Shown here in pieces: positions 4,017 to 39,521 of a stretch of 64,000 bases of DNA. Position 1 is the stretch's first letter. Each line of letters opens with the position of its first letter. The stretch spans positions 1,789,807 to 1,853,806 of the forward strand of contig OZ220751.1 of assembly GCA_965117065.1 (NCBI GenBank), read 5' to 3'. This stretch comes from an uncultured Allomuricauda sp. GTDB taxonomy: Bacteria > Bacteroidota > Bacteroidia > Flavobacteriales > Flavobacteriaceae. Position numbers and translations under genes: made by a program. Below the pieces are notes generated by a model, which ran no database searches, had not been told where the DNA came from, and was given only the letters and a program-made list of their open reading frames with translations.

Positions 4017-4260
4017 ACCCGCTTCGATCAGATTTCACAATCTTCATCCCCAATACAACATGTTCCAAGGATCCAAAAGCCTCCTTTATTTCTGTCTGAA
4101 GTAACTCCATCACCTCGTCATAATCCCCGTACACTTGGGTACTTAATGGGTTTTCCAAAACCTTAAGACCTGAGGCTCTTAGCTTTTTAATAAACTCGAT
4201 GATTGGAGGCTCAAAATTATCCTGAAGAGGAGTCAAGGTCAATTCAACGGATATTCTCAT
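4000..4260 (-). CDS. MTH1187/YkoF-family small ligand-binding protein (UPF0045, thiamin-binding protein family)
   Basis: 86 aa: MRISVELTLTPLQ...SGLKVLENPLSTQVYGDYDEVMELL... matches the MTH1187/YkoF family pattern. It is the first gene of the operon and overlaps the pnuC start by 17 nt. Confidence 0.5.
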   Translation of the reverse strand: MRISVELTLTPLQDNFEPPIIEFIKKLRASGLKVLENPLSTQVYGDYDEVMELLQTEIKEAFGSLEHVVLGMKIVKSDRSGYEPHF

Positions 4261-4306
4261 GGGTTAAGATTCATTTTTAAGCAGCAAAGCTAGTAAAAAG
4301 ACCTTA

Positions 4307-4948
4307 TCAGTTCCCCATCATTTTAAAGGCAAAAACGCAGGTAAATCCTTCAAATTCTATAAATTCTATCTCGTAATGGGATTTTTTTCCTTTATATATA
4401 ATCTTGGCCACGGTTCGTTTGTCGTCAAAGGCAAAGTCCATAACGTCAATATGTCTTAAAAAGCTAAGACCTTGCTCTGCGTATATTTTATATAGGGATT
4501 CCTTGGCGCCCCAAACTATGGTTAGCTTTCTTATTATGGCATCAGTATTGGCCAATGTGCGATATTCTTCCAAGGGAGTAAATTTATTGGCAATGCGCAA
4601 AATCTTTTCCCGCTGCATTTCAATATCAATCCCAACCTCATCGGTCTTACTCACAATAATGCCTGTAAAATTGTGTGAATGCGTAATGGATATATGGTTC
4701 CCATCTTGCAGGTGCGGCTTCCCAAAACTATCATAATAAAGGTCCTGGTCCACATAGCCAGCTTCAGCCATAAGATGCCTTATACTTAAAAAAGCGCGTC
4801 GATGAAATTCTGATTTCATCCCATCCATCCTATTTTGACAATGCGGCGTAAGTTCAATGCCCTTGGAAAGTTCATCTTCAGGTTCAGTGACCTTCCAGAC
4901 ATATAGGCTGGTTGTAGGGGAGACCGTAATGGTTTTGTATAAGGGCAC
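4307..4948 (-). CDS. 4'-phosphopantetheinyl transferase (Sfp-type)
   Basis: 213 aa with GIDIE and WGAKESLYK motifs characteristic of the PPTase superfamily. Confidence 0.7.
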   Translation of the reverse strand: MPLYKTITVSPTTSLYVWKVTEPEDELSKGIELTPHCQNRMDGMKSEFHRRAFLSIRHLMAEAGYVDQDLYYDSFGKPHLQDGNHISITHSHNFTGIIVSKTDEVGIDIEMQREKILRIANKFTPLEEYRTLANTDAIIRKLTIVWGAKESLYKIYAEQGLSFLRHIDVMDFAFDDKRTVAKIIYKGKKSHYEIEFIEFEGFTCVFAFKMMGN

Positions 4949-5022: not shown

Positions 5023-6339
5023 ATGAGCACAAAGACAATTCCTTATGTACCGTATAAGGTAAAAGATATTTCCCTTGCGGATTGGGGCCGAAAAGAGATT
5101 GAATTGGCTGAGGCTGAGATGCCCGGTTTAATGGCGTTGCGGGAAGAGTATAAGGATGAGCAACCTTTAAAGGGTTCGCGAATTGCCGGATGCTTGCATA
5201 TGACCATCCAAACTGCAGTTTTAATCGAAACTTTAATTGAATTAGGTGCTGATGTTACCTGGAGTTCCTGCAATATTTTCTCAACCCAAGACCACGCCGC
5301 CGCCGCAATAGCTGCAGCTGGAATCCCTGTATATGCTTGGAAGGGAATGACTGAGGAAGAGTTTGATTGGTGTATTGAGCAAACTTTGTTCTTTGGAGAA
5401 GACAGACAGCCTTTGAATATGATTTTGGACGACGGTGGGGATTTAACCAATATGGTATTGGATCAGTTTCCTGAATTGGCCGCTGGAGTGAAAGGATTAT
5501 CTGAAGAGACCACAACTGGGGTGCATCGTTTATATGATCGAGTGAAAAATGGGACCCTTCCTATGCCAGCCATCAACGTGAACGATTCTGTAACGAAGTC
5601 CAAATTTGATAATAAATACGGCTGCCGTGAGAGTGCTGTGGATGCGATAAGACGGGCCACAGATACTATGTTGGCCGGGAAACGTGTAGTTGTTGCCGGT
5701 TATGGCGATGTTGGAAAAGGTACCGCAGCTTCCTTTAGAGGAGCGGGAGCTATCGTTACAGTTACCGAAATAGACCCAATCTGTGCACTTCAGGCTTGTA
5801 TGGATGGTTATGAAGTAAAGAAATTGGAAACTGTTGTGGGTAATGCCGATGTAGTAATTACTACTACCGGAAACAAAGACATTATTCGCGAGGAGCACTT
5901 CAGGGCGTTAAAGGATAAAGCCATTGTTTGTAACATTGGTCACTTTGACAACGAGATTGATATGGCCTGGTTAAACGGAACCTATGGCAGTACCAAAGAC
6001 GAGATTAAACCTCAAGTTGACAAATATACCATTGATGGCAAGGATGTTATTATTTTGGCCGAGGGTAGATTGGTGAATTTGGGCTGTGCCACCGGTCACC
6101 CAAGTTTTGTGATGAGTAATTCCTTTACTAACCAAACATTGGCACAAATTGAGCTTTGGAACAATAGTGACAAGTATGAAAACGAGGTATATATGCTGCC
6201 CAAACATTTGGATGAAAAGGTGGCCAAATTGCACTTATCGCGATTAGGGGCTGAGTTAACCGAACTCAGGAAAGATCAAGCGGAGTATATTGGCGTTACC
6301 GTTCAAGGCCCTTTTAAGCCAGAGTACTACAGATACTAG
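5023..6339 (+). CDS. ahcY: Adenosylhomocysteinase
   Basis: 438 aa with full-length AhcY-like sequence including the NAD-binding [10 protein letters not shown] segment. Confidence 0.95.
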
Positions 6340-6380
6340 AAATAGAAACTAGATGCTTCGCTCTTAGAAGTAAGAAAATA

Positions 6381-6410
6381 GACCCTTGCAGTTATGTGAG
6401 GGTTTTTGTT
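6381..6410. terminator. Weak terminator-like hairpin between convergent ahcY and the response regulator gene
   Basis: ACCCT...(12-nt loop)...AGGGT followed by TTTTTGTTT. Confidence 0.3.
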
Positions 6411-7165
6411 TACATATCCAGCCACTTTTTAAAATTGGTGGTGCGTTCCCTAGATACAATAATCTGTTCCTCTTCCTTTGGAAGTATCTTGAGCAACAAA
6501 CGACTGTTAAAGTAACTATGGATTTCCACAACTGCTTTTACAGAGACCATAAATTTGCGATTGATTCGAAAAAAATGGATGGGATTCAAAATGTTCTCTA
6601 ATTGATCAATAGTGTACTCAATGGGATAGGATTGCCCAGCATGGGTAAACAAGCAAATCATTCCTTCGTGTGACTTAAAAAAGGCAATGTCTTCTACATT
6701 AAAGGATCTAAACTGATTGCCAACCTTCACCATAAACCGATGCTTATACTCCTTATGGAATAGCTGTTTTAAGTGCTCCAAATCTTCTGTAGCGCCGCGC
6801 CCATTGCGAGTCACATTTTTTTTGAATTTTTCCAGCGCAGTCTTCAAATCTGTTTTGACGATAGGTTTGAGTAAATAATCCACTCCATTGTATTTAAATC
6901 CACGAATGGCAAACTCATTATAAGCTGTAGTAAATATTACAGGAGGATGTTCTTCCATTCCATCCAGAATATCAAATCCATAACCATCGTTGAGTTGGAT
7001 ATCCAAAAAAACGAGGTCTGGAAGGGCATTCGTCTTAAACCATTGTGTTCCGTTCTCTACCGAATTGATACTTGCCACAATATCAATTTCCGGCGCAAGC
7101 TCCCCCACCAACTGAGTTAACCTCTTGGAAGCAAATTCCTCATCCTCAACAATTACTGCTTTCAT
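6410..7165 (-). CDS. LytTR-family two-component response regulator
   Basis: 251 aa with an N-terminal receiver domain (VIVEDEE...DLVFLDIQL) and a C-terminal LytTR DNA-binding domain. Confidence 0.85.
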   Translation of the reverse strand: MKAVIVEDEEFASKRLTQLVGELAPEIDIVASINSVENGTQWFKTNALPDLVFLDIQLNDGYGFDILDGMEEHPPVIFTTAYNEFAIRGFKYNGVDYLLKPIVKTDLKTALEKFKKNVTRNGRGATEDLEHLKQLFHKEYKHRFMVKVGNQFRSFNVEDIAFFKSHEGMICLFTHAGQSYPIEYTIDQLENILNPIHFFRINRKFMVSVKAVVEIHSYFNSRLLLKILPKEEEQIIVSRERTTNFKKWLDM

Positions 7166-7167
7166 AT

Positions 7168-8316
7168 TTAAGATATGGCTATCAAATTCATGTCTGTTAT
7201 TTCCTTATCCAGAAGGGGAATAATCACTTCAAAAAAATTATCCTCTTCTCGTACCAAAACCTGCTTGTTGGTATAATAGGAATATCGCTTTTTTATATTT
7301 TTTAACCCTAATCGGGTAGTTTCCTCATTCAACTGCCTTTTTCGAAGATTGTTTTTTACCACTAAGGCCTCATCGCCAATTGTTGAAATCTGAACTTCCA
7401 AAGGCTTTTCTTTACTATAATAGTTGTGCTTGAGTGCATTTTCCACCAGCATTTGAACGGATAGGGTTGGAATTAGAAAATATTCTGTTGACACTTGGAT
7501 GTCCGATTTAATCACCACAGCATCCTTATGCCGTACATTCATCATAAACACAAAAGAATCCAAAAACCCCAGTTCTTTTTTTAGCGTTACCAAGTCTTGC
7601 TCGCGATGGTCTAAAATGTAACGGTAACTTGATGCCAATCTGGTCACAAAATCTGAGGCCAAATCGCGATCCTCGTACATCAAAGACGTTAGGGTGTTTA
7701 GACTGTTAAACAAAAAATGAGGGCTTATCTGATTCTTTAATGAAGCATATTTAGAGGCCAGCATTTCCCGTTTCAAATCCTCCATTTGCTTGGTCAATTC
7801 ATCCCTTTGGTTCATGGAAAAGTGGAACATATTAAAAAAAATGACGGTCAACCCAAGCAAAATGGCTCTGAAAAAATCGATTGTAAATTCTATAAGAGGT
7901 GGGTCATCACAAATAATACCCCAACTTTCCCTAAAAACAAACAGTCCCAAATAATACACCAAAGCAGTTGTTGGGGCCAAAATGGCAATATTCTTTCCTA
8001 TAATCACAATGCTACTCTTAAAATAGAGACCTCCTTTTGGCCGTTGTTTTTTCAACAACCAATCATTGGTTTCCCAAGTAAGCATAAACAAAAAAAATGC
8101 GCTGACATAGTAGAATACGCTTGTCGCATTAAAAATGCCTTCAACCATATCATCATCCTGTTCCATTGTAATCTTGACCAGAAAAAAGACCACATTGATG
8201 ACCAGTAATCTGAACAATACTTTATAAATCCCTTTCTTCTTCAACATAAAATCTGCTTGGCGTAAAGATACACATCGACAAGTTTCTCTTTTGTCATAGT
8301 CTACTTCAACTGTCAA
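7168..8316 (-). CDS. Sensor histidine kinase (LytS/YehU-type, multi-TM N-terminus)
   Basis: 382 aa with an N-terminal hydrophobic region and the His_kinase motif SPHFLFNSLNTL. Its stop is 3 nt from the response regulator start. Confidence 0.8.
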   Translation of the reverse strand: MTVEVDYDKRETCRCVSLRQADFMLKKKGIYKVLFRLLVINVVFFLVKITMEQDDDMVEGIFNATSVFYYVSAFFLFMLTWETNDWLLKKQRPKGGLYFKSSIVIIGKNIAILAPTTALVYYLGLFVFRESWGIICDDPPLIEFTIDFFRAILLGLTVIFFNMFHFSMNQRDELTKQMEDLKREMLASKYASLKNQISPHFLFNSLNTLTSLMYEDRDLASDFVTRLASSYRYILDHREQDLVTLKKELGFLDSFVFMMNVRHKDAVVIKSDIQVSTEYFLIPTLSVQMLVENALKHNYYSKEKPLEVQISTIGDEALVVKNNLRKRQLNEETTRLGLKNIKKRYSYYTNKQVLVREEDNFFEVIIPLLDKEITDMNLIAIS

Positions 8317-8492: not shown

Positions 8493-10874
8493 ATGAAAAA
8501 TACCTTTTTGGCCATTGTGCTTTTAATCTCTTCCATGGGATTTTCCCAAACGGGAATCATTAAAGGAATTGTTCTGGACAAACAATCGGAAAGTCCATTG
8601 GAGGGCGCCACCATAGAGCTTTTGAACATGGAAATTGCCACTGGTGTAATCACAGATTTTGACGGTCAATTTACCTTAAAGAATGTTCCAATTGGCAGGC
8701 AAAGTATCCGGATAAGCTATATAGGGTTCGAGGATACATTTGTTCCCAATATTGAGGTTACCACTGGAAAAGATGTGGTGCTCAACATTACTTTAAGGGA
8801 AAGTTTCAACGCGCTAAAGGAAGTCGTGGTTACTTCAAATTCCAATTTGGACAAACCGAGAAACAAAATGGCAACGGTTTCTGCACGGCAATTTGGGATA
8901 GAGGAAGTGGGCAGGTTTTCTGGAGGTCGGGGAGACATTGGAAGATTGGCTGCTAATTTTGCCGGCGTTTCAGCTCCTGATGACAGTAGAAACGATATCA
9001 TTATTCGTGGAAATTCACCAACGGGCCTACTCTGGAGAATAGAAGGAATACCTGTACCCAATCCCAATCACTATTCCTCCGCAGGCACAACTGGTGGCCC
9101 TGTATCTGCCTTGAATCCAAACATGCTCAAAAATTCGGATTTCATTACCTCAGCATTTCCAGCCGAATATGGCAATGCCATAGGTGGAGTTTTCGATATT
9201 GGTTTGCGAAATGGAAATACAGATGACTACGAATTTGCAGCCCAAGTTGGTGCATTTTCAGGTGTGGAGGCCACAGGAGAAGGTCCTTTGGGCAGTAAAG
9301 GTTCTTTTTTGGTTGCTGGAAGGTATTCACTCGTGGGTTTAATTGGGTCTGCCGGGGCGGGAACCTCTGCTAACCCAAATTATGGAGACTTCTCTTTTAA
9401 TCTCAACTTTGGTAAGGGAAAACTTGGCAGCCTATCCCTTTTTGGAATCGGTGGCACCTCCGATATTGACTTCTTGGGGGATAGCATCGAGGCGGATGAT
9501 CTATTTGCTGCAGAAGATGAAGATGCTTATGTAGAATCTGGCTTTGGGGTTATCGGGGTTAAACATACACTTCCGTTTGGAAAAAAATCTTATTTGAGAA
9601 CAGTGGTAGGTTATTCTACTTCATCCAGTAAGTATACCGCAGACCGCTATTTTGAAAAGGATACGCCGCAGGAAACCATTTTGTTATATACCAAGGATGA
9701 TGAAACGGAAAATCGCCTTACATTCTCTACCTTGTTCAATACTAAAATCAACAACAAAATAACATTTAGGACAGGGTTACAGTACGAAAACTTGTCCTTG
9801 GATTATAGCAATCAAGATCGAGAAGAACAAGCTGATTTAGATGGTGACGGATTCTCAGACCTTGTCACCCTAATAGATATGGACGAAAGTCTAGCTCTTC
9901 TTCAACCCTTTGCCCAGGGCCAATTTAGACTATCTAAGAAACTCACACTAAATACGGGCGTACATGGATTGTATAGTAACTTAAACAAGCAATTTGTATT
10001 TGAACCACGAGCCGGACTCAGTTTTGAAGCCAATGACAACCATAGGTTCAGCTTGGGGTATGGCATTCACTCCCAAAATATTCCAACTCCCATTCTATTT
10101 CTAAACGAGGATATTAATGGCAATCCTGTGCAAACCAACAGGGATTTGGAGTTTGTTAAAAGCGCACATTACGTTTTTGGATATGATGTAAAACTGGGAG
10201 ACAAGTGGCGGGCAAAACTAGAAGCTTATTACCAAGATATAGACAATGTCCCTGTTGATTCGTTTTCCTCAAGCTATTCAACCTTGACCGAAGGAGCCGA
10301 TTTCGGATTTAGTACGGATGCAGTATCCTTGGTCAATCAGGGTACAGCATACAATCAAGGAGTTGAGCTAACTTTAGAGAAATTCTTTAGTCAAGATTAT
10401 TACTTGTTGCTCACCTCCTCTTTTTATCAAAGTAAGTACACGGGTAGTGATACTATTGAACGGAACTCGCCATTTAACAATGGCCAAGTAATCAATCTAC
10501 TTGCAGGTAAGGAATTTGCTATAGGAAAATCTAGGAAAAACAAGTTTTTTGTAGATACACGGGCCACCTATTCAGGCGGGAGATACTATACGCCAATAGA
10601 TCTGGAAACTTCAAGGAATATGGGGTATGAAGTATTGTTTGATAATCTAGCCTATAGCCAACAATACGATAGCTATTTCAGGTGGGATGTGAAGTTAGGT
10701 CTTAAAATAAACAGTAAGGGTAAAAAACAATCGCATCAATTTTACGTGGACATGCAGAACCTAACTAATAAAAACAACATCTTTTCCAGAAGGTATAATA
10801 GACTAACCAACAACATTGATCGCGAAGACCAGATTGGTTTCTTTCCGGATTTTGGTTACCGATTTCAATTCTAG
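8493..10874 (+). CDS. TonB-dependent outer-membrane receptor with N-terminal carboxypeptidase-regulatory-like domain
   Basis: 793 aa: signal peptide, then CarbopepD_reg-like region (GIIKGIVLD...GATIELLN), plug and barrel, with a terminal aromatic residue (…YRFQF). Confidence 0.85.
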   Translation: MKNTFLAIVLLISSMGFSQTGIIKGIVLDKQSESPLEGATIELLNMEIATGVITDFDGQFTLKNVPIGRQSIRISYIGFEDTFVPNIEVTTGKDVVLNITLRESFNALKEVVVTSNSNLDKPRNKMATVSARQFGIEEVGRFSGGRGDIGRLAANFAGVSAPDDSRNDIIIRGNSPTGLLWRIEGIPVPNPNHYSSAGTTGGPVSALNPNMLKNSDFITSAFPAEYGNAIGGVFDIGLRNGNTDDYEFAAQVGAFSGVEATGEGPLGSKGSFLVAGRYSLVGLIGSAGAGTSANPNYGDFSFNLNFGKGKLGSLSLFGIGGTSDIDFLGDSIEADDLFAAEDEDAYVESGFGVIGVKHTLPFGKKSYLRTVVGYSTSSSKYTADRYFEKDTPQETILLYTKDDETENRLTFSTLFNTKINNKITFRTGLQYENLSLDYSNQDREEQADLDGDGFSDLVTLIDMDESLALLQPFAQGQFRLSKKLTLNTGVHGLYSNLNKQFVFEPRAGLSFEANDNHRFSLGYGIHSQNIPTPILFLNEDINGNPVQTNRDLEFVKSAHYVFGYDVKLGDKWRAKLEAYYQDIDNVPVDSFSSSYSTLTEGADFGFSTDAVSLVNQGTAYNQGVELTLEKFFSQDYYLLLTSSFYQSKYTGSDTIERNSPFNNGQVINLLAGKEFAIGKSRKNKFFVDTRATYSGGRYYTPIDLETSRNMGYEVLFDNLAYSQQYDSYFRWDVKLGLKINSKGKKQSHQFYVDMQNLTNKNNIFSRRYNRLTNNIDREDQIGFFPDFGYRFQF

Positions 10875-29119: not shown

Positions 29120-29998
29120 TCAATTACCTGTATTTTGAATCAAAAGATTGTGGGTCTTGACAATTGCTCTTTCATTTTTCCAGTCAATCCATTTTTGCCC
29201 CTTCAACCTGCGCATTACATTATCAAAATGACGCATAAAAAGAATGTTGTAGACTGCTTTGCTAAAATTCTTAGGTCTACGTGCAATGGCCCGCAAACTC
29301 ATGGAAAATCCAGGGGTAATGTATTTCATATGGTGCCAGTACCCTTCCGGGATGTAGAGCACATTGCCATGTTCCAATTGGGCCACAAAGCCTTTGGCAT
29401 TCCGTAAAGCTGGCCATTTATCCAAATCGGGGTTGGCAAAATCAATATCTTCCCTAGTAATCAAGGAATGCGGAATCTTGTACAGAAATTTGGTCTCTGA
29501 TTGGGGAAACAGAATACACTGCTTCTTTCCTTCAAAATGAAAGTGGAAGATATTGGCCAAATCTATATCATAATGCATAAAGGTGTGGGAGTTACTACCC
29601 CCAAAAAATAACATGGGAAGCCCTTTCATCAGTCGCAATCCAAAATCCGGGTATTTATAATCTTCCTGAAGCTGTGGTACTTCCTTCAGCACATTCCACA
29701 AGAAAATTCGGTATTTGGTGGGTTCACTTTTTAGAAGGTCAATATAATCCCGCATTTTCATTTGGGCATGGGGTTCATTAAACCCCTCATCGTGCTTTAC
29801 CGGTCGATCATCATATAGAGGAACTGTAATATCTCCGGCAATTTCCTTGATGTAATCCAAATTCCATTTGGAATGGGCAGGCCAGTCCTCAATAAAATGC
29901 TCAATAACCACAGGTTTTTGTGGTTTGAAGTATTTTTGGATAAACTCCCTTTTGGAAAGGGTTTTTTCCCGTGGAATTTGATCAAGGTTAAGCTCCAA
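29120..29998 (-). CDS. Cupin-like / JmjC-domain protein (putative 2-oxoglutarate/Fe hydroxylase fold)
   Basis: 292 aa with HYD (HxD) ... distal H (YWHHMKY), consistent with a cupin_8/JmjC facial triad. Confidence 0.55.
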   Translation of the reverse strand: MELNLDQIPREKTLSKREFIQKYFKPQKPVVIEHFIEDWPAHSKWNLDYIKEIAGDITVPLYDDRPVKHDEGFNEPHAQMKMRDYIDLLKSEPTKYRIFLWNVLKEVPQLQEDYKYPDFGLRLMKGLPMLFFGGSNSHTFMHYDIDLANIFHFHFEGKKQCILFPQSETKFLYKIPHSLITREDIDFANPDLDKWPALRNAKGFVAQLEHGNVLYIPEGYWHHMKYITPGFSMSLRAIARRPKNFSKAVYNILFMRHFDNVMRRLKGQKWIDWKNERAIVKTHNLLIQNTGN

Positions 29999-30059: not shown

Positions 30060-31160
30060 TTATTCCTTAGTAATCAGCTTCCCTTTGTGCTTGGCCTCCT
30101 CATTACGATCAATGGTGTGGCTTGGTCTGGACCATTTTGGTTTTTCGCCTTGGGCTTCTAATTGGGAATCTGAAGCTTCAACCGTTTTTGGTTGTGATAT
30201 TTTGGTAAAGGGCTTTTGTGGATTCAATCCCAAGAGTTCGAACATTTCCATGTCCTCGTTCACATCCGGGTTTGGAGTGGTCAATAATTTATCCCCTGCA
30301 AAAATAGAGTTGGCCCCTACAAAAAAGCACATAGCCTGTCCTTCCCTACTCATCTCGGTTCTCCCAGCGGACAGTCTTACTTGTGTCTCTGGCATAACAA
30401 TTCGTGTTGTGGCTACCATGCGCACCATATCCCAGATGGAAATGGGTTCAATATCTTCCATGGGAGTGCCTTCAACCGCCACCAACGCATTAATTGGGAC
30501 CGATTCCGGTTGTGGGTTCAAAGAGGCCAAAGCAACCAACATGCCCGCTCTATCCTCCAGCTTTTCGCCCATGCCAATAATTCCACCGCTACAAACAGTA
30601 ACGTTGCTTTTACGTACATTGTCTATGGTATCCAAACGATCCTGAAAGGCCCGGGTGGAGATTACATCTTTATAATAATCCTCTGAAGTATCCAGATTAT
30701 GGTTGTAAGCATATAAGCCCGCTTCTGCCAGTCGATTGGCTTGGTTTTCGGTAAGCATACCTAAAGTACAGCACACCTCCATATCCAATTTGTTGATGGT
30801 ACGTACCATTTCCAATACTTGATCAAACTCTGGGCCATCCTTCACATTTCTCCACGCCGCACCCATGCAGACACGAGAACTACCAGAAGCTTTGGCCCTA
30901 AGGGCCTGTGCTTTCACTTGCTGAACGGACATTAAATCATTCCCCTCAATATCCGTATGATATCTAGCAGCCTGTGGACAATAGCCACAATCCTCTGGAC
31001 AACCACCGGTTTTGATGGATAGCAAGGTGGAAACCTGTACCGTATTGGGGTCATGATGTTGCCTATGCACGGAAGCGGCGTCATATAACAATTCCATTAA
31101 AGGTTTGTTGTAGATTTCCAGAATCTCTTCCTTGGTCCAGTTGTGTCTTGGTGCAATCAT
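30060..31160 (-). CDS. bioB: Biotin synthase with ~45-aa hydrophilic C-terminal extension
   Basis: 366 aa with the radical-SAM CPEDCGYC motif and full BioB core. Confidence 0.95.
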   Translation of the reverse strand: MIAPRHNWTKEEILEIYNKPLMELLYDAASVHRQHHDPNTVQVSTLLSIKTGGCPEDCGYCPQAARYHTDIEGNDLMSVQQVKAQALRAKASGSSRVCMGAAWRNVKDGPEFDQVLEMVRTINKLDMEVCCTLGMLTENQANRLAEAGLYAYNHNLDTSEDYYKDVISTRAFQDRLDTIDNVRKSNVTVCSGGIIGMGEKLEDRAGMLVALASLNPQPESVPINALVAVEGTPMEDIEPISIWDMVRMVATTRIVMPETQVRLSAGRTEMSREGQAMCFFVGANSIFAGDKLLTTPNPDVNEDMEMFELLGLNPQKPFTKISQPKTVEASDSQLEAQGEKPKWSRPSHTIDRNEEAKHKGKLITKE

Positions 31161-31225
31161 AGGTTGAATCTAAATCAAGGTCAAAAATAGTCCTTATTCC
31201 GAAAACACTGCAATGATATGCCGTT

Positions 31226-31258
31226 AAAAAGAAAAAGGCCAGGACATATGTCCTAGCC
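31226..31258 (-). terminator. Rho-independent terminator after the flotillin gene
   Basis: Minus strand: GGCTAGGACAT/ATGTCCTGGCC hairpin (one mismatch) followed by TTTTTCTTTTT. Confidence 0.5.
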
Positions 31259-31283
31259 TTTGCTTTATGCAAAATAGCTATGA

Positions 31284-32717
31284 TTATTCTGCTTTTTTAT
31301 CTGATTTCGGCTTACTATCTCCTGTTTTTTGTTCGGAACCATCAGACACATCCTTTCCTTTTAGATATTCTGGCAGTTGCATTCCTGCCATATTGAACAT
31401 CTCTTGTAATGGGGGTACGGATTTATACATTCCAGAGATAAAATTGGCCGTAGAATTTTTACCATCTTCAGATTTAGCTCCAGAATCCCAAACAGTGATC
31501 TTATCAATCTTAATGTTTTTGATGGCCTCGGCTTGCTTCTCTACTAATTCTGGCAGTTTGTCTGCAATCAATAATAACACCGCATCTTTGGGGTTATCTC
31601 CAGCAGCTTTTACAATCCGATCCAATCCTTCAGCTTGTTTGGTCAATACCTCAAAGATTCCTTTTGCCTCAGCTTCTGCCTTGAATAAAATTGCATCGGC
31701 CTCCCCTTTTGCTTTCCTACGAATCATTTCAGCCTCGGCTTCTGCATCAATCTCTACTTTTTTCTTATCTATTTCCGCTGGCACAACAATATCCGCCATT
31801 TGAGAACTTCTTTCCCGTTCCGCCCTTGCAATTTCAGCATCTTTCTCTGCGGCATAAGATTCCTCCAAAGCTTTTGCTGTTTGTACTTTTTCCGCTGCAA
31901 TTGCAGTTCGCTCAGCTTCAGCTTCACGCTGTCTTCGTAAGGAATCTGAGTTTGCCACATCAATCTTCGCAACATTTTCCCCTTCTACAGCTTTTGCATT
32001 GGCAGCGGCAACCTGTGTCCTCTCATCTTGGACCGCGTTCGCCTCTCCAATGGAACCATCTCTGTTTTTTTCAGCAACAGATTTACGCGCGGCATTAATG
32101 GCGTGCGCAGCAGCCTCCTTACCTAAAGCCTCTATATAACCTGACTCGTCTACAATATCCGTGATGTTTACGTTGATGAGTTTGAGACCCACTTTTTTCA
32201 ACTCGGATTCTACACTTTGGGAAATATTGGACAGAAATTTATCCCTGTCCGAATTGATTTCTTCAATATCCATGGAAGCAACAACCAGACGTAGCTGACC
32301 GAAAATAATTTCCTTGGCCAAATCCTGCACCTCCTGCATTCCCAAACCTAAAAGTCGTTCTGCAGCGTTTTGCATAATTCCAGGTTCGGTAGAAATACCA
32401 ATGGTAAATCTTGAAGGCACGTTCACCCGAATATTCTGCCTACTTAGTGCATTGGTTAAGTCTACCTCTATGGAAATAGGGGTCAAATCCAGAAACTCAT
32501 AGTCTTGGATTACCGGCCAAATAAAAGCCGCCCCGCCATGAATACATTTAGCAGAATTACCAGAACCAACTTTTCCATAAACCACCAGAATTCGGTCTGA
32601 AGGACATCTTTTGTATCTCCTAATAAAGGAAATGATAATGATAAAGGCAAAAAGAATGGCAAAGCCAATAGTTAAGAGCGAAGCTCCTCCGCCCAGTTGT
32701 AAGGGTATTAATAGCAT
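31284..32717 (-). CDS. Flotillin-family SPFH/band-7 protein (YqiK/FloT-like)
   Basis: 477 aa with an N-terminal TM, SPFH domain and a long Ala/Glu-rich coiled coil. Confidence 0.85.
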   Translation of the reverse strand: MLLIPLQLGGGASLLTIGFAILFAFIIIISFIRRYKRCPSDRILVVYGKVGSGNSAKCIHGGAAFIWPVIQDYEFLDLTPISIEVDLTNALSRQNIRVNVPSRFTIGISTEPGIMQNAAERLLGLGMQEVQDLAKEIIFGQLRLVVASMDIEEINSDRDKFLSNISQSVESELKKVGLKLINVNITDIVDESGYIEALGKEAAAHAINAARKSVAEKNRDGSIGEANAVQDERTQVAAANAKAVEGENVAKIDVANSDSLRRQREAEAERTAIAAEKVQTAKALEESYAAEKDAEIARAERERSSQMADIVVPAEIDKKKVEIDAEAEAEMIRRKAKGEADAILFKAEAEAKGIFEVLTKQAEGLDRIVKAAGDNPKDAVLLLIADKLPELVEKQAEAIKNIKIDKITVWDSGAKSEDGKNSTANFISGMYKSVPPLQEMFNMAGMQLPEYLKGKDVSDGSEQKTGDSKPKSDKKAE

Positions 32718-32721
32718 ATGG

Positions 32722-33300
32722 TTATTTATTTAGGAGTTTAACAATCAATATTCCGTTATCGGTAACTTCTTTTACTTGGATCACGTTACCTTGTTTAAGG
32801 TCCACATTCTCATCCGTCAAAGCCTCTAATTCGCGTAGGGTACCTTGCACCTTAATGCTCACTTTTCCAATACTAGATCTATTGGCTCCAATTGTGAGGT
32901 ATACCTCCCCAATCTGATCGAGGGCATTTTTAAGTTTTAAAGTACCACTGCTTTGCATTTTGCTTAGGTAGTAAAACAGAGATGCCATGAGCAACATCAT
33001 AAGTAATCCACAGACCACGGAGATAAGAATGGTCATACCATTGGATAGACCGTTTTCCATGCATGAAATACCTGACCACCCAAAAATTGTAAAAAAGCCC
33101 ATTAAATTCTTAAAGGAAAGAAATTGAAATCCTATTCCGCCATCTCCTTCAACGTCTGCATCTATATCTCCGCTTACATCTTCGATATCTCCCCCAACAA
33201 AGGTCAAAACCATCAAAACAACAAGCACAATCGAGCCTGCGATTGCCGTAATCCAATAAACTTTTTCAAACAGCGTAAGTGTGGTATACCATTCTTCCAT
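32722..33300 (-). CDS. NfeD/YqiJ-like membrane protein (flotillin partner)
   Basis: 192 aa with TM helices plus a C-terminal OB-fold-like region. It lies immediately upstream of and co-oriented with flotillin. Confidence 0.6.
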   Translation of the reverse strand: MEEWYTTLTLFEKVYWITAIAGSIVLVVLMVLTFVGGDIEDVSGDIDADVEGDGGIGFQFLSFKNLMGFFTIFGWSGISCMENGLSNGMTILISVVCGLLMMLLMASLFYYLSKMQSSGTLKLKNALDQIGEVYLTIGANRSSIGKVSIKVQGTLRELEALTDENVDLKQGNVIQVKEVTDNGILIVKLLNK

Positions 33301-33366
33301 AATCCGTAGTATTTAGGTTGTTATTTTGATGAAAAAAGATAAGACTTTAAATGAAATATCTGTGTC

Positions 33367-34524
33367 TTATTTGGAAAGTAAAATGGAAACTGCATTCCCG
33401 CCAAAACCTACTGCGTTGACCATAATCTTTTGAATGGGTTTGGCTCCCATATCTTGCCTTAAAAAAGGAGTAGTAATGTAGGTTTGATGCTGTAACATAA
33501 GCAAGGCCATTTCAACACTTAATAGTCCCGAGGCACCAAAGGTGTGGCCTACTTTCCATTTATTGGTTGTTAAAAAGGGTTTTTTGTTACAAAAGATTTT
33601 TTCAATAGCATTAAATTCCGACAAATCTCCCTTAACCGTACCTGGTGAGTGCAGAACAATAGCATCTACCTGCGAAGGGTCTAAATCGCCCAGAGCCATC
33701 TTCATAGAAGCTTGGAAGCACCGGGCATCAGTTGAAATGGAAACATTGTGTTCCAAAGGTTCGGTGGCATATCCAATTCCCACAATAAAAGCCAAAGCAT
33801 TTGCCTTTTCTCCTTTTTCCAAACATGCCATAGCGGCACCTTCCCCCAAGACCATTGAATTTTGCTTTTTGGTCAAGTCCAATGCTCGACAAGGAAATTC
33901 ATTGACTTCTTTTGCATATATTTTCAATGCATGCATCTGCGCAATGGTAAAAGGGGTTAAGGGTGCTTCGCTCCCTCCTACCAAGAATTTATCGGTTAAT
34001 CCGCTTTGAATCCAAGCCACCGCATTCAGCACCGCATGTAGGGCCGTGGAACAGGTGATTGAATGGGAAATTTCTGGTCCCTTCGATTTTAAATCATGGG
34101 CTACCCAGGAAGAGATATTGCCTAAAGTGGTTGTCGGTGAAGACAGGGTTGAAGATTTTCCTTCCTTTAGAAATTCCCCGTGATATTTTTCAAAAAGAGC
34201 CGTAGCTCCACGAGAAGACCCAATGTTGATTCCAAAATTGGCATCGCCCGTCCACTTTGCGCATTCAATAACCTTTCTGGCCGTACATAATGCGAAAAGC
34301 ACAGAATCATCCAAATGATGGTATTTTGAGTCTGATTGCCTTAACGTATTAACTTGCAACTTTGTTGATGCCGGAAGATTAGAAGCCCATACCTCTTGAT
34401 TCCCAATCTGGGTTTGGACTAAGTTATGCCCCTCCTTTTGATAGGATTCCCATACATCCTCAGGGGCACTCCCCAAGGCGGAAATAGACGATAAACTGGT
34501 AATGGAAACGGGTTCTTTCAGCAT
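33367..34524 (-). CDS. Beta-ketoacyl-ACP synthase I/II-like condensing enzyme, short form, embedded in the biotin operon
   Basis: 385 aa with active-site Cys in ITCSTALHA, and His in HSPGTVKGD and VGHTFGASG (Cys-His-His triad of FabB/FabF). The start is 11 nt after the bioA stop. A terminator hairpin follows. Confidence 0.7.
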   Translation of the reverse strand: MLKEPVSITSLSSISALGSAPEDVWESYQKEGHNLVQTQIGNQEVWASNLPASTKLQVNTLRQSDSKYHHLDDSVLFALCTARKVIECAKWTGDANFGINIGSSRGATALFEKYHGEFLKEGKSSTLSSPTTTLGNISSWVAHDLKSKGPEISHSITCSTALHAVLNAVAWIQSGLTDKFLVGGSEAPLTPFTIAQMHALKIYAKEVNEFPCRALDLTKKQNSMVLGEGAAMACLEKGEKANALAFIVGIGYATEPLEHNVSISTDARCFQASMKMALGDLDPSQVDAIVLHSPGTVKGDLSEFNAIEKIFCNKKPFLTTNKWKVGHTFGASGLLSVEMALLMLQHQTYITTPFLRQDMGAKPIQKIMVNAVGFGGNAVSILLSK

Positions 34525-34535
34525 TTCTATATCAT

Positions 34536-35822
34536 CTAAACAATTTCCAGTGCTGATTTTATAGCATTATAAATCTCCTTCATCTGCTCTTTGCTTGTAA
34601 TGAATGGAGCCAATATATAAATGGTATTCCCCAATGGCCTAAGAAAGATTCCTTGGTCCATAAAATGCCTAAAAAGTTTATCTCTTAGGTTTCCATAGCG
34701 CTCCATTTGCACCTTTAAATCCAAAGCATAAATAACGCCCAATTGTCTTGTTGCACCTACTCTAGGGTGGTTTTTAATTTCTGCATCAAATTCTTGGTGC
34801 CATTGTATAATGTTTTGTATGTTTTTTTGAATCCCTTCTGTTTGCAAGAGTTCCAAAGCTGCCAAAGCGGCGGTGCAGGCCAGTGGATTTGCTGTATACG
34901 TGTGTCCATGAAACAGACCTTTTGCGATATCATCACTATAAAAAGCTTGATAAACATTCTGAGTGCAGGAGGTAAGGCCCATCGGAACAAGTCCAGCTGT
35001 CAAGGCCTTGGAAAGACATATGATATCCGGTTTTGTTTCCATATGATCAGAAGCAAAATACTTTCCTGTCTTGCCAAATCCTGTCATCACCTCATCTGCT
35101 ATTGTTAGGACATGATGTTTTTTCAATAGCGACAGAATTTGATTAAGTCCATCCGCATCATGCATTTTCATCGCAGCGGCTCCTTGAACCAAAGGTTCAT
35201 ATATAAATCCGGCAACGTTTGCCTTTTGCAATCTAACTTCCAACTGATTCAACAGAATTGGCAAATTTTCCCGAGTTGGAACAGGAATACGTTCTACTTG
35301 AATAAAAAACTCCTCAAAGGGGCCATTGTAAACAGAAAGACCAGAAACAGACATCGCACCAAAAGTGTCTCCATGAAATCCCTCTTCAAAGGCCAATAGC
35401 ACGTTGCGCTTTTCCCCTCGGTTAAAATGGTATTGCAAAGCCATTTTAATCCCAATTTCCGTTGCTGTGGAACCATTATCTGAAAAGAATAGCTTCTCCT
35501 GATTCTCAGGTAAAACTTTGACTAGTTCCTCTGAGAGTTTTACGGCTGGCTCATGGGTAAACCCACTAAAAACTACCTGATCCAGTTGTTGCATCTGTTC
35601 CCCTACTTTTTCCAAAATGTAAGGATGGCAATGTCCATACACACAAGTATACCAAGAGGATATGCCGTCAATATATTCTTTGCCATTTTCATCAAACAGC
35701 ATAGCTCCTTTTGCCTTGGAAATGGCCAACATTTCAGGATGGGTCTTATGCTGGGTTAAGGGGTGCCAAAGGTGCTTTTTGTCCCTGTCCGATAAATTTT
35801 CCAATGTATGGGGATTAGCCAA
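34536..35822 (-). CDS. bioA: Adenosylmethionine-8-amino-7-oxononanoate aminotransferase
   Basis: 428 aa class-III aminotransferase with the characteristic BioA N-terminus (W.P.TQ...). Confidence 0.9.
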   Translation of the reverse strand: MANPHTLENLSDRDKKHLWHPLTQHKTHPEMLAISKAKGAMLFDENGKEYIDGISSWYTCVYGHCHPYILEKVGEQMQQLDQVVFSGFTHEPAVKLSEELVKVLPENQEKLFFSDNGSTATEIGIKMALQYHFNRGEKRNVLLAFEEGFHGDTFGAMSVSGLSVYNGPFEEFFIQVERIPVPTRENLPILLNQLEVRLQKANVAGFIYEPLVQGAAAMKMHDADGLNQILSLLKKHHVLTIADEVMTGFGKTGKYFASDHMETKPDIICLSKALTAGLVPMGLTSCTQNVYQAFYSDDIAKGLFHGHTYTANPLACTAALAALELLQTEGIQKNIQNIIQWHQEFDAEIKNHPRVGATRQLGVIYALDLKVQMERYGNLRDKLFRHFMDQGIFLRPLGNTIYILAPFITSKEQMKEIYNAIKSALEIV

Positions 35823-35873
35823 ATGTTACATTTTATCTATCTTGCAAAGATGGTGATTTAAACCTAAAAATAC

Positions 35874-35896
35874 TCAACCTCAACCTCAACCTCAAA
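35874..35896. repeat. Hexanucleotide tandem repeat (TCAACC)x3.5 in the bioA / GT39 divergent intergenic region
   Basis: Read directly from the sequence: tcaacctcaacctcaacctcaaag, abutting the GTG start of the GT39 gene. Confidence 0.8.
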
Positions 35897-37381
35897 GTGC
35901 TTCTAAAAGCAAAAGGATTAGATTATTTTCGCAAGCTTCAGCTTCACTGGAAAACGGTATTTCTGGTTCTGCTTCTGCTAGCGCTCTTCATCCGATTCCC
36001 ATTTTTCTTTAGGGATTATGTGGATCGGGACGAAAGTACTTTTATCATCATGGCCCAATCCTGGGTTGATGGCCATTTGCCATATACTCAATTGTGGGAT
36101 CTAAAACCGCCTATTACCTTTTTCTGTTTTGCTGTGGTCATTTCCATTTTTGGTAAAAGTTTTATTGCCATCCGGTTGCTTGGGACTCTAATGGTTGCCC
36201 TTACTTCCCTTTTTACCTATGGAATTGCAATACGGACAACTTCCAAAAAAGTGGGGTTTTGGTGCGCCCTTTTTTGCGTTTTTTTTCAAAGTTTATTTGG
36301 CAGTCTGCAGGGGGTGATGTCTGAGCATATTTGCACCTTATTTTTTGTCATCGCAGTATATTTCCTGCTTTCTAAGCAAAATAGTTGGTGGCATTTAATT
36401 GCAGGCCTTCTCTTTGGACTCTCTGTAATGTCCAAGTTGAATATGGCCTATCCATTACTTTCCTTGGGAATTTATCTAATCTGGAGGGCGCTTAAGGACA
36501 ACGATTTATGGAAAGAACTTCAAAAATTAGTCGGCCTTGGGGCTGGGTTTGTTTTGATGCTAATACTGACAGCGATTCCCTACTACCTTCAAGGGGAATT
36601 AGGCAACTGGTGGCAATCCATTTTTGAAGCCCCATTGGCCTATTCTCAGTCCAAATTCCATTCTGTGGGTAAAGCACTGCCCGTTGTCTTGGGCACACTA
36701 CTCTTATTATCACTTGGAATTGCAACAAAGCTGATCAGCACAAAAACCAAGGAGGTGCAAATTTTACTAGTGGTTATAGTAGGAATACTCATTTCCTTTA
36801 TGCAAACAGGAAAGGTAAATGGACATTATTTGATTCAGTTGTATCCTTTTTTCCTAATTCTGGTAGCTATGGCCGTAAGCAAGTTGCCCTCCCCAAAAAG
36901 GGCATTTCAAATCGTCATGGGGATTTTGATAGCACTAATCCCAATGGAAGCCTATCTTGAATATGCCAACATCTTTTCCAATAAAATGGAAAAGGGCTCT
37001 TTTTATAACGGGGAAGGTATTGATGTCCCTAACTACATTAAAGAGAACAAGCTTGAGACTGACAATATTTTCTTTACTGAATATCATATTGGTTATTGGT
37101 TACTAAGCGAAACCCCTCCCACTAAGGCTGCTACCCACCCTAGCAATATTACGCGCGACCAACTTTTTCCCTATATGAACAATCCTAGAAGAACGGGAAT
37201 GGATGAGCTTCGTTTTATAATGGAGGTGGTGAAACCCAAGACTGTAGTGGCTAGAAATAAGAAAGCCATATTCGATAAAAAATTATTGGAGTTTAACTGG
37301 TATATAGATACCTATCTAGCTCAACATTATTTTTTAGAAGCCACAATAGATAGAGCCCTGATTTATCAACGTTTAGAATAA
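35897..37381 (+). CDS. Glycosyltransferase family 39/83-like integral membrane protein (ArnT/PMT-like)
   Basis: 494 aa with more than 10 TM helices and an N-terminal DxD/E-containing loop (FRDYVDRDEST) typical of GT-C mannosyl/arabinosyl transferases. GTG start. Confidence 0.6.
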   Translation: MLLKAKGLDYFRKLQLHWKTVFLVLLLLALFIRFPFFFRDYVDRDESTFIIMAQSWVDGHLPYTQLWDLKPPITFFCFAVVISIFGKSFIAIRLLGTLMVALTSLFTYGIAIRTTSKKVGFWCALFCVFFQSLFGSLQGVMSEHICTLFFVIAVYFLLSKQNSWWHLIAGLLFGLSVMSKLNMAYPLLSLGIYLIWRALKDNDLWKELQKLVGLGAGFVLMLILTAIPYYLQGELGNWWQSIFEAPLAYSQSKFHSVGKALPVVLGTLLLLSLGIATKLISTKTKEVQILLVVIVGILISFMQTGKVNGHYLIQLYPFFLILVAMAVSKLPSPKRAFQIVMGILIALIPMEAYLEYANIFSNKMEKGSFYNGEGIDVPNYIKENKLETDNIFFTEYHIGYWLLSETPPTKAATHPSNITRDQLFPYMNNPRRTGMDELRFIMEVVKPKTVVARNKKAIFDKKLLEFNWYIDTYLAQHYFLEATIDRALIYQRLE

Positions 37382-37987
37382 TTCCAAAGCTCCCCTAAAC
37401 TCTTCCGCGTACTTTTTTACCGTTACTTTATCAAAATTTTGCTCCTCATTGATTCTGCCAAGAAAAGAGACTTCTGTTTTCCTTAAAATGATACTTTCAG
37501 TGGTCGGATGTTCATTGCCACTAAATATAATTCCAACTTTTAGATTCTTTTCCTGAAGCTTTTCAATGGTAAGCAATGAATGGTTGATACTCCCCAAATA
37601 ATGCCTTGAAACCACAATAACCTTGTCGCTAGGTTTAATTAGGTCGAACACTGTATCCTTATCGTTTAAAGGAACAAGTAACCCTCCCGCTCCCTCAATG
37701 ATTAACTTGTTATCCGTTTTTGGAGGAACAATTTTATCCAACGCTATACTAATTCCGTCAATTTCCGCCGCGGCATGGGGGCTCATAGGTGTATTAAGGG
37801 CATAGCTGTTTTTGTGGATTTGGGTTCGTGGGTTGGAAATCAATGCTGCAATCGTATGACTATCGGAATGGGACAGGTCACCAGCTTGGACCGGTTTCCA
37901 ATAATCTGCTTCCAAGGCCTCAACTACAATAGCCGAAGCTATGGTTTTTCCTACGTCAGTGGATATTCCAGTAACAAATACATTCAT
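37373..37987 (-). CDS. bioD: Dethiobiotin synthetase
   Basis: 204 aa with the P-loop GISTDVGKT and the BioD fold. Confidence 0.9.
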   Translation of the reverse strand: MNVFVTGISTDVGKTIASAIVVEALEADYWKPVQAGDLSHSDSHTIAALISNPRTQIHKNSYALNTPMSPHAAAEIDGISIALDKIVPPKTDNKLIIEGAGGLLVPLNDKDTVFDLIKPSDKVIVVSRHYLGSINHSLLTIEKLQEKNLKVGIIFSGNEHPTTESIILRKTEVSFLGRINEEQNFDKVTVKKYAEEFRGALELF

Positions 37988-38370
37988 GATTGCGGTTTGG
38001 TAATAAAATTACAACGGGTACAACGGTATTTTTTTGGTTCAAAAAATGGAAACAATTTGTAAAAAACCCCCTTTCTGGAATAATATATTTCTGATCTGGT
38101 TGCCTTACAGTTGGGACAGACAATGGGGCTCCCATCCATGTCTGTAGCGTAGTTTCTAACCTCATCATAGATTTGCTTCGCCTTTTCCTTGTCCGTAGTG
38201 TATACCTGTAGTTTTACCCCGCCTATTGCACTACTAATAAGGGGGTCAGAATTAATGGTGTTCTCATCCCTTAAAAAAACTTGTATTCCTTCAGATTCAA
38301 GCTTTCCTTTTATGATTTGAACATCGGCCGGGAATTCAAAGCTACCCAATGTGTAAAATTCCTGTGTCAT
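37984..38370 (-). CDS. Hypothetical protein: DUF2007-like (PII-like) N-terminal domain plus C-terminal CxxC...CxxC zinc ribbon, translationally coupled between bioF and bioD
   Basis: 128 aa. Its ATG overlaps the bioF stop (TAATG) and its stop overlaps the bioD start (ATGA). Cys motifs CPNC...CTRC. Confidence 0.5.
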   Translation of the reverse strand: MTQEFYTLGSFEFPADVQIIKGKLESEGIQVFLRDENTINSDPLISSAIGGVKLQVYTTDKEKAKQIYDEVRNYATDMDGSPIVCPNCKATRSEIYYSRKGVFYKLFPFFEPKKYRCTRCNFITKPQS

Positions 38371-39521
38371 TACTTCATTCCATTCTTTATCAAGTGCAAA
38401 ACTCGGGAAAATTCTTCTTTGGTATTAAATGCATGTAAGCAAAACCTCAGTCTTTCTTCCCCTGTCTTAATTGTTGGCGAAAGAATTGGCTTTACATCAA
38501 ACCCTTCTTGGTACAATTCTTTGGAAAGCTTCTTTGCCTCTTGGTTGCCAGGAACCATCAAACAGTGTATGGCAGAATCGCTAGCCCTAAACCTCCTGTT
38601 CAGTCCTAAATGTTCAACTTCAGCTTTAAAATGTGAAATGTTTTGTTGAAGTGCCAATCTGTTATTCCTGCCGTGTTCCTGCAAATACTTATAAGCTACT
38701 ATGATCGTGGCAACTGCATGCGGGGCAAGTGCGGTAGTGTAAATAAAGCTTCTTGCAAAATTGATGAGGTATGACTTCAAGGGTTCGCTTCCTAAAATTG
38801 CTGCCCCATGACACCCCATAGCTTTCCCAAAAGTTAGGATTCTGGCAAAGACCTTGTCTTGTAGTCCCAATTCAAAAATTAAATCCTTGCCATCACCAAA
38901 AATTCCGGTGGCATGAGCTTCATCCACCACTAAATTATATCCTTTTTCACTGCAAGATTTCGCTAAGGCTTTTAAATCAGGGGAGTCCCCATCCATTGAG
39001 AAAACCGACTCCGTTACCACATACACCTCAGCGTCTTGGCCAATGTCTAAGCTACGCTCGATAAGACCTAGTAAGTCATTTATGTTATTGTGTTTGAATT
39101 TATAGCTCCTAGCATTCCCCATTTTAATCCCATCCCGAATACTGGCATGAATCAACTCGTCATAAAAAACCAAATCCCCTCTTTGGGGAACAGCGGAGAA
39201 AAATCCAACATTGGCATCGTAGCCAGAATTGAAAACAAGTGCCGCATCGGCTTTATGGTAATCAGCCAACAAAGATTCCAATTGAGGGTATAGTTCATGG
39301 TTTCCGGTTAGTAAACGAGACCCTGTTGCACCATTGAGGTAAATCTGCTTTTCCTTCAGAAGTTTCAACACTCCATCCTGAATGCTTTTTGTTCTCGAAA
39401 ATCCCAAATAGTCATTGGAAGAGAAATCAACCAAATTATTGGTGGTCGGGAAGTAGCGCATTGAATTATTGGCTGACCTTTCCGTCAATTTGGATTGCAG
39501 TTTTGGCGGTAATCTCTCCAT
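38370..39521 (-). CDS. bioF: 8-amino-7-oxononanoate synthase
   Basis: 383 aa alpha-oxoamine synthase with the PLP lysine in TFGKAMG. Confidence 0.9.
   Translation of the reverse strand: MERLPPKLQSKLTERSANNSMRYFPTTNNLVDFSSNDYLGFSRTKSIQDGVLKLLKEKQIYLNGATGSRLLTGNHELYPQLESLLADYHKADAALVFNSGYDANVGFFSAVPQRGDLVFYDELIHASIRDGIKMGNARSYKFKHNNINDLLGLIERSLDIGQDAEVYVVTESVFSMDGDSPDLKALAKSCSEKGYNLVVDEAHATGIFGDGKDLIFELGLQDKVFARILTFGKAMGCHGAAILGSEPLKSYLINFARSFIYTTALAPHAVATIIVAYKYLQEHGRNNRLALQQNISHFKAEVEHLGLNRRFRASDSAIHCLMVPGNQEAKKLSKELYQEGFDVKPILSPTIKTGEERLRFCLHAFNTKEEFSRVLHLIKNGMK

Follow-up and report, generated by a model that had tools for sequence, protein, structure and literature searches.

A KAS II-type condensing enzyme linked to biotin genes is a candidate source of the pimeloyl thioester in Bacteroidota

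We analyzed a 64,000-nucleotide (nt) stretch of DNA from an uncultured Allomuricauda sp. (GCA_965117065.1, contig OZ220751.1; hereafter the window), which carries a biotin (bio) locus where a gene for a 385-amino-acid (aa) beta-ketoacyl synthase (KAS) follows bioA. On balance, this KAS probably supplies the pimeloyl thioester for BioF, both here and in much of the Bacteroidota. An earlier note on the same DNA, made from the letters alone, had proposed a dedicated FabB/F-type condensing enzyme for biotin synthesis that resembles BioZ in its logic. We likewise arrive at a dedicated biotin condensing enzyme because the linkage to bio genes persists, the enzyme is not a housekeeping FabF, and an arginine is invariant at the position of FabF Ile108. 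Linkage, divergence from FabF, and the arginine are thus what supports the proposal, and from them we infer the function itself.

The part of biotin biosynthesis that varies, and is not yet fully worked out, is the synthesis of the pimelate moiety. The characterized routes number four (BioC-BioH, BioI/BioW, BioZ, and BioE); support for a fifth, in Desulfovibrio, is genetic only. Genome surveys detect the complete set of four late biotin genes in most Flavobacteriia (PMC9561691), and we found no publication that assigns a pimelate route to the Flavobacteriaceae and Cytophagales that bear the KAS described here.

Linkage of the KAS to biotin genes

The KAS gene followed bioA on the same strand in all 80 genome loci that we compared, which span at least a dozen genera of Flavobacteriaceae. 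In the window the gap from the bioA stop to the KAS ATG, read directly, is exactly the 11 nt given in the earlier note. Insertions around the KAS came and went among the genome loci while the KAS stayed; these comprised a glycosyltransferase gene, an NfeD-flotillin pair, and a gene for a 143-aa membrane protein. The linkage also exceeds inherited synteny. Members at 36-41% identity, which we treated as distant contexts, were linked to bio genes in seven of eight cases and in several gene orders. The order bioB-bioF-bioD-bioA-KAS occurred in L087/L088, Pontibacter (L092), and Hymenobacter (L094, with an extra 195-aa open reading frame (ORF) between bioF and bioD). L082 had bioF-bioD-bioA-KAS with an 8-nt overlap, and the remaining linked contexts were bioD-KAS-bioB (L091), bioD-KAS-hydrolase (L090), and bioF-KAS (L089). 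A metagenome scan was seeded with the Pedobacter KAS, the one unlinked member, and returned 68 informative loci, of which 56 contained bio genes and 53 had a bio gene within 700 nt of the KAS.

The minority of KAS members without bio linkage shared no consistent alternative neighbor. The 105 non-bio proteins encoded beside divergent members contained no Pfam family more than six times, and the 25 most frequent families included no methyltransferase, DUF452, acyl carrier protein (ACP), short-chain dehydrogenase/reductase, or FabZ. Neither an AcpP nor a FabH homolog was found in the ~170 fetched loci, and a FabG-like gene was found in two only (L092 and L075). We also sought housekeeping fabF, acpP, and fabH beside the KAS to show that they co-exist with it, and found none within the fetched flanks.

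Several single contexts deserve mention in their own right. The ~143-aa protein is predicted to span the membrane once, and its conserved gene lies on the opposite strand in the gap between bioA and the KAS (~9500-9950) in L019, L032, L046, L048, and L059, and also in L063, L072, L075, L077, and L079; the KAS is therefore not co-transcribed with bioA in those relatives. In Pontibacter korlensis (L092) the FabG-like short-chain dehydrogenase gene (3815-4615; product 39% identical to E. coli FabG) is ~1 kb upstream of the bioB-F-D-A-KAS series. In the distant bacterium GCA_016786595.1 (L090), alpha/beta-hydrolase genes flank the KAS, one after bioF (Abhydrolase_1) and the other overlapping the KAS stop (Ser_hydrolase); the hydrolase and neighbor coordinates are 199-1029, 9179-9742; 6099-7214. 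The same KAS adjoins LysW/LysX-type lysine genes of the alpha-aminoadipate pathway. This setting may point to a step catalyzed by an esterase, or to some tie with the metabolism of C6/C5 dicarboxylates.

Enzyme class and acyl pocket

The KAS is a genuine but atypical KAS II-type enzyme, separate from housekeeping FabF. It matched both ketoacyl-synthase domains in Pfam (PF00109, 84.5 bits; PF02801, 57.8 bits), and its AlphaFold model (predicted local distance difference test score 96.6) superposed on FabF structures with template modeling (TM) scores of 0.86-0.91 at 21-25% identity. In the alignment to FabF, the triad C158/H292/H327, together with K322 and the gating F374 of the GFGG loop, corresponds to FabF C163/H303/H340/K335/F400, and all five residues are 100% conserved in 140 family sequences. 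The Pfam domains and this alignment bear out the KAS I/II-type assignment and the intact Cys-His-His triad reported in the earlier note. The catalytic apparatus is therefore intact and predicted to be competent.

In sequence the KAS diverges from FabF. The protein is, as had been noted, shorter than housekeeping FabF (413 aa in E. coli), and the 28 lost residues fall in deletions around FabF positions 243-248 and 376-390. It scored 136 bits against the fabF equivalog TIGR03150, whose cut-off is 493.75, and 18 KAS models of NCBIfam were matched, every one below its cut-off. ACP_syn_III, the FabH type, reached 22 bits, also below cut-off, and the best sequence match in the PDB reached 95 bits. 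Mean identity of the KAS family to E. coli FabF is 24%, while FabF and FabB are 39% identical to each other.

A search of 1.8 billion cluster representatives recovered 421 clusters at E<1e-30, and we aligned 139 full-length members from the best 150 of these. Pairwise identity within this sample fell as low as 28%. Named members belong to Flavobacteriaceae, Cytophagales (Hymenobacter, Pontibacter, Adhaeribacter, and Rufibacter), and Pedobacter, all of them generically named. The KAS represents a deep Bacteroidota family.

The acyl pocket holds the most distinctive feature of this family. In FabF the acyl-binding pocket is gated by Ile108 and Phe202 (PMC7138838; for Ile108 see also PMC5206705 and PMC4606726), and residues 138-140, which line it, are among the few positions that differ between the active-site and substrate pockets of FabB and FabF (PMC4606726). 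An arginine occupies the Ile108 position in 140 of 140 family sequences (Arg105 in the window KAS). We assign Arg105 to this position because three independent alignments agree: one made with MAFFT that included FabF and FabB of E. coli, and two pairwise ones, from HMMER, against FabF structures. The substitutions from FabF to the family are I108R, V134S, I138T, N140G, A162T, A193P, G198T, and F202M. The hydrophobic Ile108/Phe202 gate of housekeeping FabF is thus replaced by arginine and methionine, and serine or threonine stands at positions 134, 138, 162, and 198. Judged from these residues, the KAS pocket appears short, polar, and cationic, and would suit an acyl group with a terminal carboxylate.

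The biotin locus and the search for known pimelate genes

The window has ~40% G+C and includes a GldD gliding-motility gene, and we assigned it to Flavobacteriaceae; its KAS is 77% identical to those of Flagellimonas species. Genes for all four late steps are present, as the earlier note had it (Table 1). The products of bioB, bioA, and bioD pass their NCBIfam cut-offs, and that of bioF has TIGR00858 as its best match yet falls below the cut-off, with the Kbl and serine palmitoyltransferase models scoring lower still.

Table 1 Features of the biotin locus in window coordinates
Feature	Position	Strand	Basis or remark
bioB (biotin synthase)	30060-31160	-	TIGR00433, 405 bits vs cut-off 225
Terminator-like hairpin, strongest on the bio strand	31234-31261	-	12-bp stem with 6 G-C pairs, then a T run; between flotillin and bioB
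Flotillin	31284-32717	-	Band_7/FloT matches
NfeD-like membrane protein, 192 aa	32722-33300	-	Membrane-protein sequence; partner of the downstream flotillin
KAS I/II-type condensing enzyme, 385 aa, candidate pimeloyl-thioester former	33367-34524	-	ketoacyl-synt and Ketoacyl-synt_C
Segment with His292, Lys322, and His327 (FabF His303, Lys335, His340)	33544-33651	-	Alignment
Catalytic Cys158 codon (FabF Cys163)	34051-34053	-	Alignment
Arg105 codon	34210-34212	-	FabF GSGIGG, family GSSRGA; invariant also in alignments A1 and A3
bioA (adenosylmethionine-8-amino-7-oxononanoate transaminase)	34536-35822	-	TIGR00508, 539 bits vs cut-off 405
PMT_2 glycosyltransferase, variable insertion between bioD and bioA	35897-37381	+	Pfam match; present or absent among related loci
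bioD (dethiobiotin synthase)	37373-37987	-	TIGR00347, 108 bits vs cut-off 83
DUF2007-like and zinc-ribbon protein, 128 aa, between bioF and bioD	37984-38370	-	Translationally coupled
bioF (8-amino-7-oxononanoate synthase; consumer of the pimeloyl thioester)	38370-39521	-	TIGR00858 best match, 315 bits, below cut-off 426

Pfam scans covered 50 of the 54 window ORFs of at least 90 aa, the remaining four being 92, 96, 116, and 652 aa long. No BioC-type methyltransferase, DUF452 protein (BioG), BioW, P450, or FabH-type protein was found among the 50 scanned ORFs of the 64 kb, which agrees with the earlier statement that no recognized pimelate gene is present. Signatures of BioH, BioI, and BioZ were likewise absent from the 64 kb, and the related loci that we compared yielded neither a malonyl-ACP O-methyltransferase nor a pimeloyl-ACP methyl ester esterase gene of the BioH/G/K/J/V kinds. 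That statement had listed the genes of the other routes and left out BioE. We looked for BioE with a relaxed scan of six-frame translations for the diiron spacing E-x26-ExxH-x68-E-x29-ExxH, and the motif was absent from the window as well as from L001-L080 and L082-L094. The genera Flagellimonas, Muricauda, Maribacter, and Zobellia are not listed in the supplement of the BioE paper, which is uninformative for the present case. Two small ORFs of the locus were considered as hidden pimelate genes and rejected. The 192-aa ORF, as a BioE, BioG, or BioC candidate, is a membrane NfeD-like protein that is absent from half of the related loci, and the 128-aa ORF, as a BioE candidate, has no diiron motif and is DUF2007-like with a zinc ribbon.

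bioF and bioD form one operon with the 128-aa gene between them, whose start overlaps the bioF stop by 1 nt (TAATG) and whose stop overlaps the bioD start (ATGA). Its product has a weakly DUF2007-like N-terminus and a C-terminal CxxC...CxxC zinc ribbon, and is kept in most Flavobacteriaceae bio loci; we looked for a relative in the PDB and found none. In Hymenobacter (L094) a 195-aa multi-pass membrane protein (6721-7308) occupies the slot between bioF and bioD instead. Upstream of bioA, in its spacer with the divergent glycosyltransferase gene, lies a tandem GAGGTT repeat of 3-4 units on the minus strand (~35868-35890). The word AAAGCAAA, shared upstream of bioF, bioA, and bioB, was considered as a regulatory element and dropped, since it is not conserved in L001-L080.

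The NfeD-flotillin pair, which separates the KAS from bioB, is an insertion of variable occurrence and lies outside the pathway. About half of the related loci lack it and have bioB directly after the KAS. The bio locus tolerates unrelated insertions, because this pair and the PMT_2 gene are both present in some relatives and absent in others. The earlier note placed a terminator at the end of the KAS gene, which the sequence does not support: the 66-nt spacer between the KAS and nfeD contains no G+C-rich hairpin, and the first strong terminator-like hairpin on that strand (31261-31234) comes after the flotillin gene.

On the same strand, 61 nt downstream of bioB, is a gene for a 292-aa Cupin_8/JmjC 2-oxoglutarate oxygenase-like protein (29120-29998), whose best relative in the PDB is human JMJD5 (89 bits). 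The pair of bioB and this cupin gene is kept in nearly all Flavobacteriaceae loci and absent from Cytophagales and several metagenome clusters. In L168 the pair is adjacent but inverted relative to the KAS and recX. An oxygenase that adjoins bioB may be relevant to biotin chemistry.

Proposed role, alternatives, and significance

In the mechanism that we propose, an omega-carboxy acyl primer would be loaded on Cys158. The primer may be glutaryl-ACP or glutaryl-coenzyme A (CoA) in a single round, as with BioZ; alternatively, two rounds may use first malonyl-ACP and next glutaryl-ACP, the scheme put forward for Desulfovibrio. Its free omega-carboxylate would sit in the shortened polar pocket, neutralized by the invariant Arg105, while His292, His327, and Lys322 would decarboxylate malonyl-ACP. 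Condensation would then yield 3-oxopimeloyl-ACP, which housekeeping FabG, FabZ, and FabI could reduce to pimeloyl-ACP for BioF. That the KAS is the sole pimelate source, and likewise its substrate, the role of Arg105, and the use of housekeeping reductive enzymes, are points that we infer. BioZ complements E. coli deleted for bioC, and for bioC together with bioH (PMC7645780), which suggests that housekeeping reductive enzymes accept free-carboxylate C7 intermediates and so makes a lone specialized KAS plausible. More tentatively, and with less confidence than we place in a role in pimelate supply as such, a lone KAS II-like enzyme with an arginine pocket might suffice together with an ordinary ACP and the ordinary reductive enzymes to carry malonyl-ACP to pimeloyl-ACP in two rounds without a methyl-ester disguise, and such a route would serve most Flavobacteriaceae and Cytophagales.

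A close functional parallel is BioZ, a 3-ketoacyl-ACP synthase of the KAS III/FabH type that is encoded in bio clusters of alpha-proteobacteria. Like BioZ, the KAS would be a condensing enzyme dedicated to biotin, and the cluster of each lacks bioC and bioH (PMC7645780, PMC8024396). BioZ residues S84, R147, and S287, which lie at the tunnel bottom, were proposed to neutralize the glutaryl carboxylate (PMC8024396), and this Arg/Ser arrangement parallels the arginine pocket that alignment suggests for the KAS. The BioZ product passes through housekeeping FabG/Z/I to BioF, and we propose the same handover here. The two enzymes nevertheless differ in scaffold, triad, and primer: BioZ has a FabH scaffold, a Cys-His-Asn triad, and a CoA primer, whereas the KAS has a KAS II fold and Cys-His-His, so that their kinship holds at the level of the thiolase superfamily only.

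A precedent on the FabF side comes from Desulfovibrio, with which we compared the KAS by published description. DVU2563, a FabF-like KAS in the bio cluster DVU2558-2565, was predicted in 2004 (PMC545781), and randomly barcoded transposon sequencing showed that it is needed for biotin synthesis "without methyl esters" (PMC10102598). As in the window, a KAS I/II-type gene stands in a bio cluster that itself lacks bioC and bioH, and the Arg/Ser/Thr pocket of the KAS fits the idea that free-carboxylate intermediates are elongated in an active site of lower hydrophobicity. The Desulfovibrio module, however, comes with an ACP gene and with FabG-like and FabZ-like genes of its own and requires a nitroreductase-like protein, whereas the Bacteroidota KAS stands alone; dedicated ACP, FabG-like, and FabZ-like genes of the DVU2560-2563 type were absent from the scanned window ORFs. 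Clusters of this type were found by Trotter et al. (2023) in no groups other than Desulfobacterota and Chrysiogenetes, all of them anaerobes (PMC10102598), while the KAS described here belongs to aerobic Bacteroidota. We found no publication on the KAS family. The earlier claim that the route is not among the characterized ones has to be qualified by the DVU2563 precedent and by BioE, the fourth characterized route. The overall interpretation in that note appears largely right yet unproven. The KAS appears to be a stand-alone pimelate condensing enzyme on a KAS II scaffold, widespread in Bacteroidota.

Housekeeping FabF shares with the KAS its fold (TM ~0.9), triad, lysine, and GFGG gating loop, and differs from it in overall sequence (21-25% identity), in the exchange of Ile108 for arginine, in the polar pocket, in the sub-cut-off scores, and in the KAS not lying beside acpP. 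BioE occupies the same slot in the pathway, the supply of the pimeloyl thioester, in a sister family of the Flavobacteriales with a similar bioF-D and bioA/B layout. It is nonetheless an unrelated protein, and works by oxidative C7-C8 cleavage of long acyl chains. BioE is a ferritin-like diiron oxygenase of Weeksellaceae, published in late 2025, and is part of a bioEFD operon; homology searches placed homologs in several other families, including some Flavobacteriaceae (PMC12704756, PMC12915131).

Several points weigh against a role of the KAS in pimelate supply. The region from the M61 peptidase gene to recX is syntenic across all 80 Flavobacteriaceae loci, and the 80-locus set alone is weak evidence because the whole region is inherited together in this way. 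KAS I/II enzymes usually accept acyl-ACP primers, and we know of no source of glutaryl-ACP. About 12 of the 68 metagenome loci, and Pedobacter sp. P351 (L093), have no bio gene nearby. The placement of Arg105 in the pocket comes from sequence alignment combined with published FabF structures. We found no experimental or fitness evidence for the KAS family and no publication on it, and the literature yielded neither a described KAS I/II biotin enzyme from Bacteroidota nor fitness data for Pontibacter, Echinicola, or Pedobacter. Our view of the source genome was limited to 64 kb, so bioC/bioH-like genes or bioE could lie elsewhere, and the hydrolase genes beside bioF and the KAS in L090 would also suit a methyl-ester route.

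These points leave room for other accounts of the KAS. It is improbable, in our judgment, that the enzyme works inside a BioC-type methyl-ester pathway, with bioC and an esterase elsewhere in the genome, as a dedicated condensing enzyme for the methyl esters of malonyl-ACP and glutaryl-ACP, which may be poor substrates for the housekeeping KAS of Bacteroidota. Beyond the 64-kb view and the L090 hydrolases, such a pathway could draw on Arg105, which could hydrogen-bond an ester carbonyl; but the invariant arginine and the Ser/Thr changes suit an anion better than a methyl ester, and the hydrolase neighbors occur in a single lineage. Moreover, no BioC-like methyltransferase appeared either in the scanned window ORFs or in the top families of the flanking proteins, and an E. 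coli BioC probe, a weak one, matched nothing in 80 metagenome loci.

We also think it unlikely that pimelate comes from another source, for instance salvage, the JmjC/cupin oxygenase by bioB, or a BioE-type oxygenase with an unlinked gene, with the KAS playing an accessory or unrelated lipid role and lying near bio genes for regulatory or historical reasons. The BioE homologs reported from some Flavobacteriaceae (PMC12915131) would fit this, as would the KAS family members that are unlinked to bio genes and the JMJD5-like 2-oxoglutarate oxygenase gene, which in most Flavobacteriaceae loci comes after bioB and has remained its neighbor across an inversion. The BioE motif, however, is absent from the window and from all scanned loci, whereas bioE of Weeksellaceae sits in the bioEFD operon (PMC12704756), and the cupin gene is missing in Cytophagales and in many metagenome clusters that retain the KAS. 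The linkage of the KAS with bio genes, in turn, survives several independent rearrangements, including ones with overlapping stop and start codons. It is very improbable that the KAS is an ordinary FabF/FabB paralog that elongates fatty acids and just happens to lie in the bio region: the catalytic residues are intact, the fold is FabF-like, and source databases name the protein merely "beta-ketoacyl synthase", but its family averages 24% identity to FabF, it scores under every curated KAS cut-off, its Ile108 gate has become an invariant arginine, no acpP, fabH, or fabD lies nearby (with a FabG-like gene in two loci only), and the bio linkage recurs over families and gene orders.

If the KAS does supply the pimeloyl thioester, it would offer a one-gene candidate to fill the pimelate gap, recognizable by the signature of an arginine in place of the FabF gate Ile108. 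Generic "beta-ketoacyl synthase" annotations would then be corrected in thousands of genomes, and predictions of vitamin auxotrophy from metagenomes would improve. The enzyme would also provide a compact part for engineering the production of biotin or odd-chain dicarboxylates, and would illustrate how changes to a KAS II pocket can adapt it to charged substrates. On the more tentative two-round reading, it would constitute a minimal additional route to pimelate for most Flavobacteriaceae and Cytophagales, both major producers of biotin in the environment.

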